A stretch of 64,000 nucleotides of DNA from Legionellales bacterium (GTDB lineage: Bacteria; Pseudomonadota; Gammaproteobacteria; UBA1113), in contig PAMH01000013.1 in the NCBI GenBank assembly GCA_002707205.1, positions 65,523 through 129,522 on the forward strand, written 5' to 3'. Position 1 is the first letter of the stretch. Each line of letters begins with the position of its first letter. Below are positions 32,327-33,419 of this stretch, piece after piece. The translations under genes were made by a program, and so were the position numbers. A model generated the notes under the pieces. The model searched no databases, was not told the DNA's origin, and worked only from the letters and a program-made list of their open reading frames with translations.

Positions 32327-32340
32327 GAACATTAATCTAT
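32327..32340. repeat. 14-bp palindrome copy 1 (GTTCCACGTAGAAC, one mismatch)
   Basis: Read directly; lies 10 bp downstream of the recF stop and 20 bp from copy 2. Confidence 0.6.
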
Positions 32341-33419
32341 AATTTTGTCACAATACCATGTTCCACGTGGAACGAGGTACTAGGAATATCTTGTCGAATT
32401 ATTTCAATCCCAGTTAAATCAAGTAATGTCATAAAAACTTGTGCATTTATCTGTCCTAGCAGTGAAAACACTGAATTTCGTCGATTTAAGTCTAATTCAG
32501 CAGTAATGTCATCTAATAAAAATATACAAGAATTTTGCGTGATTTTTTTTAACAACATCCCTTGCGCTAAGCGCATAGCGATAACTAATAATTTCTGCTG
32601 TCCTCGAGAAAGAACTTCATGTACAGGATGTTTACCTATTTTAATCTGTAAGTCCGCACGATGTATGCCATAAGCACTATATCCACGCTCAAAGTCTTTT
32701 GAAAAATTCATACTCAACGCTTGGGTGATGCTTAAATCTTTTGGCCAGCCCTGATAATAATCAAAATTTAAATTTTTAATTTGCAATAAATTATCGAGAA
32801 TAATATTTATTTCTGGCGTTAATTGTTCAAGATAGCGAATGCGCATTTCATGTAGTTTTGTGACTAAAACACTAAGTTCATAATCCCATGGCGCAATAGC
32901 ATCTTGAGACAAACGGCTTTTTAATGCCGCATTGCGTTGTTTTAACAATCTATGATAATTTTGCCAACACGAAAAAAATGATCGTTCCACGTGGAACAAA
33001 CCCCAATCAATAAATTGTCTTCGTTGTTTTGGCCCATGATCTAATAAATGATAAGAGTTTGGATGTATTAGCAACACAGGTAATACACAAGCCAACTGCG
33101 CAGCACCAACTTGAGCATTCCCGTTTAGCTTACTTATACCAACAGCATCAACACTACGTTCTAAACCAATTGTTTGTAACTGTTGATAGTGGTCGTAAAG
33201 CTGAGCAAATAAAACAAATTTTTGTTGATCATAAGTAATCAATCGTTGAATTTTACTGGTTCTAAATGAACGTAAATGACCCAGATAATAGATCGCTTCT
33301 AATAAACTTGTTTTACCACTGCCATTCAAACCAGAAATGTAATTAAAACCTGTAGAAAATTCCAATCTAGATTCAGCAAGATTTCGAAAATTATATAATG
33401 AGAGCTCGGTTAAGCGCAT
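32337..33419 (-). CDS. recF: DNA replication and repair protein RecF
   Basis: MRLTELSLYNFRNL...GLNGSGKTSLLEAIYYLG (Walker A) ... LLLDDITAELD (Walker B/D-loop); overlaps the dnaN stop. The tracked ORF has a 12-codon upstream extension. Confidence 0.9.
   Translation of the reverse strand: MRLTELSLYNFRNLAESRLEFSTGFNYISGLNGSGKTSLLEAIYYLGHLRSFRTSKIQRLITYDQQKFVLFAQLYDHYQQLQTIGLERSVDAVGISKLNGNAQVGAAQLACVLPVLLIHPNSYHLLDHGPKQRRQFIDWGLFHVERSFFSCWQNYHRLLKQRNAALKSRLSQDAIAPWDYELSVLVTKLHEMRIRYLEQLTPEINIILDNLLQIKNLNFDYYQGWPKDLSITQALSMNFSKDFERGYSAYGIHRADLQIKIGKHPVHEVLSRGQQKLLVIAMRLAQGMLLKKITQNSCIFLLDDITAELDLNRRNSVFSLLGQINAQVFMTLLDLTGIEIIRQDIPSTSFHVEHGIVTKL
32360..32373. repeat. 14-bp perfect palindrome copy 2 (GTTCCACGTGGAAC)
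   Basis: Read directly; lies inside the recF 3' end, encoding FHVE. Confidence 0.6.
32984..32997. repeat. 14-bp perfect palindrome copy 3 (GTTCCACGTGGAAC)
   Basis: Read directly; lies inside recF, encoding FHVE a second time. Confidence 0.6.

Follow-up and report, generated by a model that had tools for sequence, protein, structure and literature searches.

A probable parS centromere cluster in and beside recF of an uncultured marine Legionellales bacterium

The sequence TGTTCCACGTGGAACA is the experimentally defined parS site of Pseudomonas aeruginosa, P. putida and Myxococcus xanthus (PMC4368675, PMC7022226), and it is also the consensus listed for the latter two species (PMC7022226, Table 1). 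A sister form, TGTTNCACGTGAAACA, is listed for Bacillus subtilis, Burkholderia and Vibrio (PMC7022226, Table 1). In P. aeruginosa, parS2 and parS3 correspond to TGTTCCACGTGGAACA, and parS1 and parS4 to TGTTCCACGTGGAACC, in which the last base is changed (PMC4368675, Table 1). Two of these sites, parS1 and parS2, are intragenic in recF, at approximately 4 kb from oriC (PMC5521831, PMC3909081), and the silent mutations that destroy P. aeruginosa sites (TTt CAt GTa GAg) are synonymous codons of the peptide FHVE (PMC4368675). Substitutions in the core of the P. aeruginosa sites or next to it lower their affinity (PMC4368675). Binding of ParB to the intergenic sites parS3 and parS4 represses the adjacent promoters (PMC5521831). 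We found no relevant literature on parS in Legionella.

Here we describe a 64-kb stretch of DNA from an uncultured marine Legionellales genome, called the window in what follows, in which three copies of a palindrome had been noticed around the 3' end of recF. A motif search of the window for GTTCCACGTGGAAC, allowing up to two mismatches, found exact copies at 32360-32373 and 32984-32997, both as given in the original prediction, and a one-mismatch copy, GTTCCACGTAGAAC on the + strand, at 32317-32330, which is 10 bp off the coordinates first proposed for it (32327-32340). The two neighbouring copies had been described as 20 bp apart; their starts are 43 bp from each other, with a gap of 29 bp. 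The internal copy lies 610 bp further upstream in recF, and all three fall within 0.7 kb. The one-mismatch copy is non-coding, its start lying 7 nt beyond the stop codon of recF (TAG, 32339-32337), or 6 nt when the site is taken as a 16-mer; the earlier statement that each copy encodes FHVE therefore holds for two copies out of three. The gene that follows on the same strand as recF codes for a Na+/H+ exchanger (30366-32162), and the two proximal copies do lie upstream of its ATG (32162), although at about 155 and 198 bp rather than at the 165 to 210 bp first estimated. The motif was not found anywhere else in the 64 kb. As had been proposed, the clustering is not due to chance: three matches were observed where 0.04 were expected, and none of 100 dinucleotide-preserving shuffles of the window gave three.

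Taken as 16-mers, the three sites match TGTTCCACGTGGAACA at 15 positions out of 16 each, none of them perfectly. All three differ by exactly one mismatch from the inverted-repeat consensus TGTTNCACGTGNAACA, and no further site within one mismatch of it was found in the 64-kb window; the published consensus sequences were taken from Table 1 of PMC7022226 and Table 1 of PMC4368675. The site at the 3' end of recF (32359..32374, TGTTCCACGTGGAACG) encodes the FHVE of the C-terminal TSFHVEHG. The internal site (32983..32998) has the sequence CGTTCCACGTGGAACA on the + strand, or TGTTCCACGTGGAACG when read along recF, and encodes the FHVE of DWGLFHVE. The sequence of the parS-like intergenic site (32316..32331) is TGTTCCACGTAGAACA on the + strand; on the recF strand it is TGTTCTACGTGGAACA. 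The two intragenic sites share with P. aeruginosa parS1 and parS2 the 16-bp palindrome, which is either TGTTCCACGTGGAACA or its last-base variant (PMC4368675), and they occupy the same two places in recF, at the DWG-FHVE and the C-terminal FHVE[HQ]G motifs. Read on the recF strand, both are also identical to the M. xanthus parS sequence TGTTCCACGTGGAACG (PMC7022226), but that species, in which ParB is essential, has its 22 sites clustered at a distance from recF. The parS sites of B. subtilis Spo0J and of the Caulobacter and Thermus ParB proteins (TGTTNCACGTGAAACA) belong to the same family of 16-bp palindromes with a CACGTG core; in these systems, however, the half-site GTTTCAC is preferred and the sites lie outside recF.

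The third site directly follows recF, whereas P. aeruginosa has parS3 and parS4 some 10 kb beyond. Its mismatch falls within one half-site and adjoins the CACGTG core, and the site is identical in all 10 population contigs compared. Because this C-to-T change is shared with P. aeruginosa parS5, the weakest site of that species, which carries a second change in addition (PMC4368675), the intergenic copy is probably a weaker site of lower affinity.

Other identities considered for the palindromes were rejected. A pair of overlapping weak DnaA boxes was set aside because TGTTCCACG agrees with TTATCCACA at only 6 positions out of 9, and a relic of a recF 3'-end duplication because the copies are alike solely in the palindrome and the flanking AT. 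An E-box of the bHLH type was also discarded, since to our knowledge there is no bacterial family of bHLH proteins, and ParB fully explains the CACGTG core. As a separate observation on 32357-32374 of the window and on the C-terminal site of three relatives (L011, L013 and L018), MFHVEH, a common peptide at the C-terminus of RecF, is spelled ATGTTCCACGTGGAACAT, a perfect 18-bp palindrome in which the Met and His codons are reverse complements of each other. The intergenic copy of the window is likewise flanked by A...T (AATGTTCTACGTGGAACATT).

The host gene of the two intragenic sites, recF (32337..33419, - strand), encodes a protein of 360 aa that matches the TIGR00611 recf equivalog with 346 bits (cutoff 172) and is 100% identical to the RecF of an uncultured marine Legionellales bacterium MAG (Tara). 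We calculated codon shares from 35 ORFs of the window, at 33% GC. TTC accounts for 9% of the Phe codons, CAC for 17% of the His codons, GTG for 19% of the Val codons and GAA for 74% of the Glu codons, and the chance of FHVE being spelled TTC-CAC-GTG-GAA is thus P = 0.0022 per site, or about 5e-6 for both sites. In Pseudomonas these are preferred codons, whereas in the window the site is held against codon bias. On these frequencies, protein coding alone does not explain the motif.

Conservation was evaluated in six related RecF loci, for which the DNA was fetched. They are among the nearest RecF relatives, at 51-60% identity, and the GC content is 35-38% in the DNA of the six and 34-38% over the seven lineages, window included. 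A genome-contig search with the single RecF of the window had found no relatives, the species apparently lying outside the GTDB representative set. The exact 14-mer is present at the DWG-FHVE site in all seven lineages, with all four codons invariant, and at the C-terminal site in six of them, the seventh (L012) having one substitution. Aligning the codons of the seven lineages gave 123 degenerate columns that are invariant in amino acid, of which 20 are invariant in codon as well; the only G/C-ending codons among the latter are TTC, CAC and GTG of the two FHVE sites, the remaining ones being A/T-ending preferred codons. A third exact copy, non-coding, is found downstream of recF in five of the six relatives, at 1-359 bp from the stop codon and 58-410 bp from the C-terminal copy. 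It lies 25-302 bp upstream of genes that differ from one relative to the other (a GT2 glycosyltransferase, a BON-domain protein, an unknown ORF). In the only relative without this copy, a convergent gene is located 39 bp after recF. Judging from the rare codons, their fixation in divergent relatives and the conserved non-coding copies, selection acts on the DNA sequence itself and holds codons that are otherwise disfavoured.

We further searched genomes with a RecF alignment, which gave a pattern-selected, phylogenetically uncontrolled sample of 80 named loci. Both FHVE positions carry parS with no more than one mismatch in Pseudomonas, Halopseudomonas, Thiopseudomonas, Oceanospirillum, Alteromonas, Porticoccus, Rheinheimera and another Legionellales MAG. 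The Pseudomonas loci show the exact parS1 sequence at site 1 and the exact parS2 sequence at site 2, and because these stand at the same FHVE positions, 32983-32998 is, by alignment, the positional homologue of P. aeruginosa parS1 and 32359-32374 that of parS2. The intragenic sites are kept from Legionellales to Pseudomonas, whatever gene follows, and the one at the recF 3' end is conserved as DNA among Gammaproteobacteria that have ParABS. Both the palindrome and FHVE are gone from the two positions in Xenorhabdus, Proteus, Haemophilus, Gilliamella and Zophobihabitans (L040, L047, L049, L052, L053, L060, L061, L063, L067, L074 and L082), in which the peptides found instead are FHNE or FHHH and FRVE, FSVE, FHIK or FQVD. 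Enterobacterales and Pasteurellaceae, to which the report of missing par genes applies (PMC3909081), are represented among these by Xenorhabdus, Proteus and Haemophilus.

Two other features of the surveyed loci may be mentioned. Vibrio, Photobacterium, Enterovibrio and Shewanella have at their C-terminal recF site the conserved TGTTTCATGTGGAACA, which has one mismatch in the CACGTG core (L022, L024, L026, L028, L031, L042, L055, L056 and L078, at around position 2543 in each). Its identity across genera suggests a maintained variant site rather than decay. Additional perfect copies of TGTTCCACGTGGAACA were seen outside recF in two loci, at positions 1096 and 1469 of a Proteobacteria MAG (L020), upstream of recF, and at position 2326 of a freshwater Gammaproteobacteria MAG (L048), about 1.2 kb downstream of recF; parS clusters around recF thus vary in size.

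The position of the sites relative to the replication origin is similar to that in P. aeruginosa. The candidate oriC of the window (36000..36880, 24% GC) lies between the dnaA start (35999) and rpmH (36879), at the GC-skew minimum. It contains perfect DnaA boxes at 36211, 36258, 36498 and 36590 (cluster 36211-36598) and one box with a single mismatch. The parS cluster is located 3.2-3.9 kb from the DnaA-box cluster, and mnmG, rsmG, parA and parB are found on the other side of the origin. As in P. aeruginosa, the sites are thus about 4 kb from oriC, with parAB beside gidAB across the origin (PMC5521831, PMC3909081). A difference from that species concerns gyrB, which no longer follows recF in the window. 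It is found at 18802-21222 on the - strand, and since about 11 kb separates it from recF, the usual dnaA-dnaN-recF-gyrB operon is broken. The interval holds the Na+/H+ exchanger gene, an 1800-aa ORF (24693-30095) and a 538-aa ORF (21454-23070), and no Pfam match was obtained for the two ORFs. Elsewhere in the window, an ORF of 994 aa (6209-9193, - strand) combines HEAT repeats with a C-terminal cyclic-nucleotide-binding domain, an unusual architecture.

The window also encodes the predicted partners of the sites. Beyond the origin, the genes follow in the order MnmE, MnmG, RsmG, ParA-type ATPase and ParB, with the GidB and GIDA Pfam matches directly upstream of parA; mnmG-rsmG-parA-parB is the canonical arrangement. 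The parA (soj) gene (43592..44392, + strand) codes for a 266-aa Walker-type ATPase partner with matches to Pfam AAA_31, CbiA and MipZ, and no NCBIfam equivalog scored above its cutoff for this ORF. The parB gene (44413..45315, + strand), at 12 kb from the parS sites, codes for the predicted binding protein, of 300 aa, with the Pfam domains ParB_N, HTH_ParB and, for dimerisation, ParB_C. It matches TIGR00180 with 190 bits (cutoff 58), and the Noc model remained below its cutoff.

Its best relatives of solved structure are the ParB proteins of M. xanthus, T. thermophilus, B. subtilis and C. crescentus, the closest structure being M. xanthus ParB 7BNK (E = 7e-46). With the B. subtilis, Caulobacter and Thermus proteins it shares the ParB architecture and the CTP-clamp motif, and the alignment shows the arginine patch GERRWRA in ParB_N. 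Aligned with the Caulobacter DNA-binding domain 6S6H, the protein reads GKPR...N...GHAK and has R, L, T and G at 173, 179, 184 and 201. According to PMC7383237, R173 and G201 of Caulobacter are absolutely conserved in parS-binding ParB proteins, and Noc has Q and R in their place. The equivalents of R173 and G201 are present in the window ParB, which does not have the Q/R pair of Noc. It differs at three other DNA-contact positions that have been reported as conserved (PMC7383237), having H instead of Q162, P instead of S172 and K instead of R204.

We conclude that the three palindromes are very probably an origin-proximal parS centromere cluster of this Legionellales chromosome. Among the functions originally put forward was an origin-proximal protein-binding site, and the match to the parS consensus, the DnaA-box cluster 3-4 kb away and the ParB encoded in the window all speak for it.

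Several other explanations have to be weighed against a parS cluster. Both exact copies encode FHVE in conserved RecF motifs (of 120 RecF homologues, 107 have the peptide at site 1 and 78 have it at site 2), and some Photobacterium species keep FHVE at site 1 in non-palindromic, non-parS codons, so that the peptide, on this comparison, has some constraint of its own. A palindrome that is purely a by-product of RecF needing FHVE twice, with no function at the DNA level, is nevertheless hardly credible, since the codons that spell it are rare at 33% GC and yet fixed in seven divergent AT-rich lineages where other conserved residues have A/T-ending codons, and since the third copy, like its counterparts in five relatives, lies outside coding sequence. 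The idea that orthologues carry the same nucleotides purely through codon constraints, which would have undone the original proposal, fails on the same rare but fixed codons. Recurrence of a short perfect palindrome could also point to a dispersed repeat, whether REP-like, related to restriction or serving as a DNA uptake sequence. The probability of this is negligible: instead of a high copy number there are three copies in 64 kb, all in one place, the half-site GTTCCAC occurs only once outside them, and their positions are orthologously conserved across gammaproteobacterial orders. The uptake-signal-like repeat suggested earlier is likewise at odds with a motif found nowhere else in the window.

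Two copies precede the exchanger ATG on its strand, which, together with the repression exerted by ParB at P. aeruginosa parS3 and parS4, would fit an operator. A dedicated dimeric transcription factor of the CACGTG-box type acting on the Na+/H+ exchanger gene is, however, very improbable. The downstream gene differs among the relatives and the site lies at varying distances from it; the intragenic sites persist from Legionellales to Pseudomonas regardless of what follows; no other promoter of the window bears the motif; and the sole sigma-70-like match in the recF-exchanger spacer is on the wrong strand. The antiporter operator of the original prediction is thus unsupported as a primary function, given relatives with unrelated downstream genes. 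A role at the RNA level, in which a hairpin at the recF 3' end serves as a terminator, an attenuator or an mRNA stabiliser, is unlikely too as the explanation of the motif, although it may come in addition. In the - strand RNA of window positions 32290-32400, the two neighbouring copies do pair over 16 bp, forming a stem around the stop codon with AUUUU after it; the fold has a minimum free energy of -33.3 kcal/mol (z = -5.4) that none of 200 shuffles equalled. Such pairing is nonetheless automatic for any two copies of a self-complementary sequence. The spacing between the copies varies among the relatives (58-410 bp), the sequence is conserved without compensatory changes, the internal copy, 610 bp upstream, has no partner, and a terminator consensus scan of the recF-exchanger spacer found none.

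If the sites are indeed parS, the events around them may be outlined from the described systems. We infer ParB binding, spreading and a role in segregation in the Legionellales organism. The HTH domains of ParB dimers (44413-45315) would recognise the 16-bp palindrome; with CTP bound at their GERRxR motif, the dimers would form clamps and slide onto the flanking DNA, so covering the dnaN-recF-exchanger region. ParA (43592-44392) would then move the partition complex, 3-4 kb from oriC, soon after initiation, and the complex would probably load SMC or another condensin. The two intragenic sites would be written into recF by spelling FHVE as TTC-CAC-GTG-GAA, which is itself palindromic. As a side effect, ParB may dampen the Na+/H+ exchanger promoter, and because the downstream genes vary among the relatives this would not be the selected function. 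A more far-reaching proposal is that the recF-embedded centromere is an ancient gammaproteobacterial dual-coding element, in which ParB binding partly holds FHVE and the constraint relaxes when ParABS is lost, and that, jointly with this, the stop-adjacent parS pair doubles as a terminal hairpin of recF; we consider this combination doubtful.

On this reading, the locus is a clear-cut, ordinary instance of parS embedded in recF, a known arrangement, here in an undescribed AT-rich lineage. It reveals no new mechanism; its interest lies in how visibly the site overrides codon bias. For the uncultured marine Legionellales genome, the annotation of the origin region can now be fixed, with oriC, three parS sites and parAB, and a puzzling island of rare G/C-ending codons in recF is explained. 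More generally, the locus provides a case of overlapping codes, in which a protein-binding site is kept inside a gene against strong AT mutational and codon bias, in lineages with RecF proteins of only about 55% identity, and methods that seek selection at the DNA level within coding sequence could be calibrated on it.
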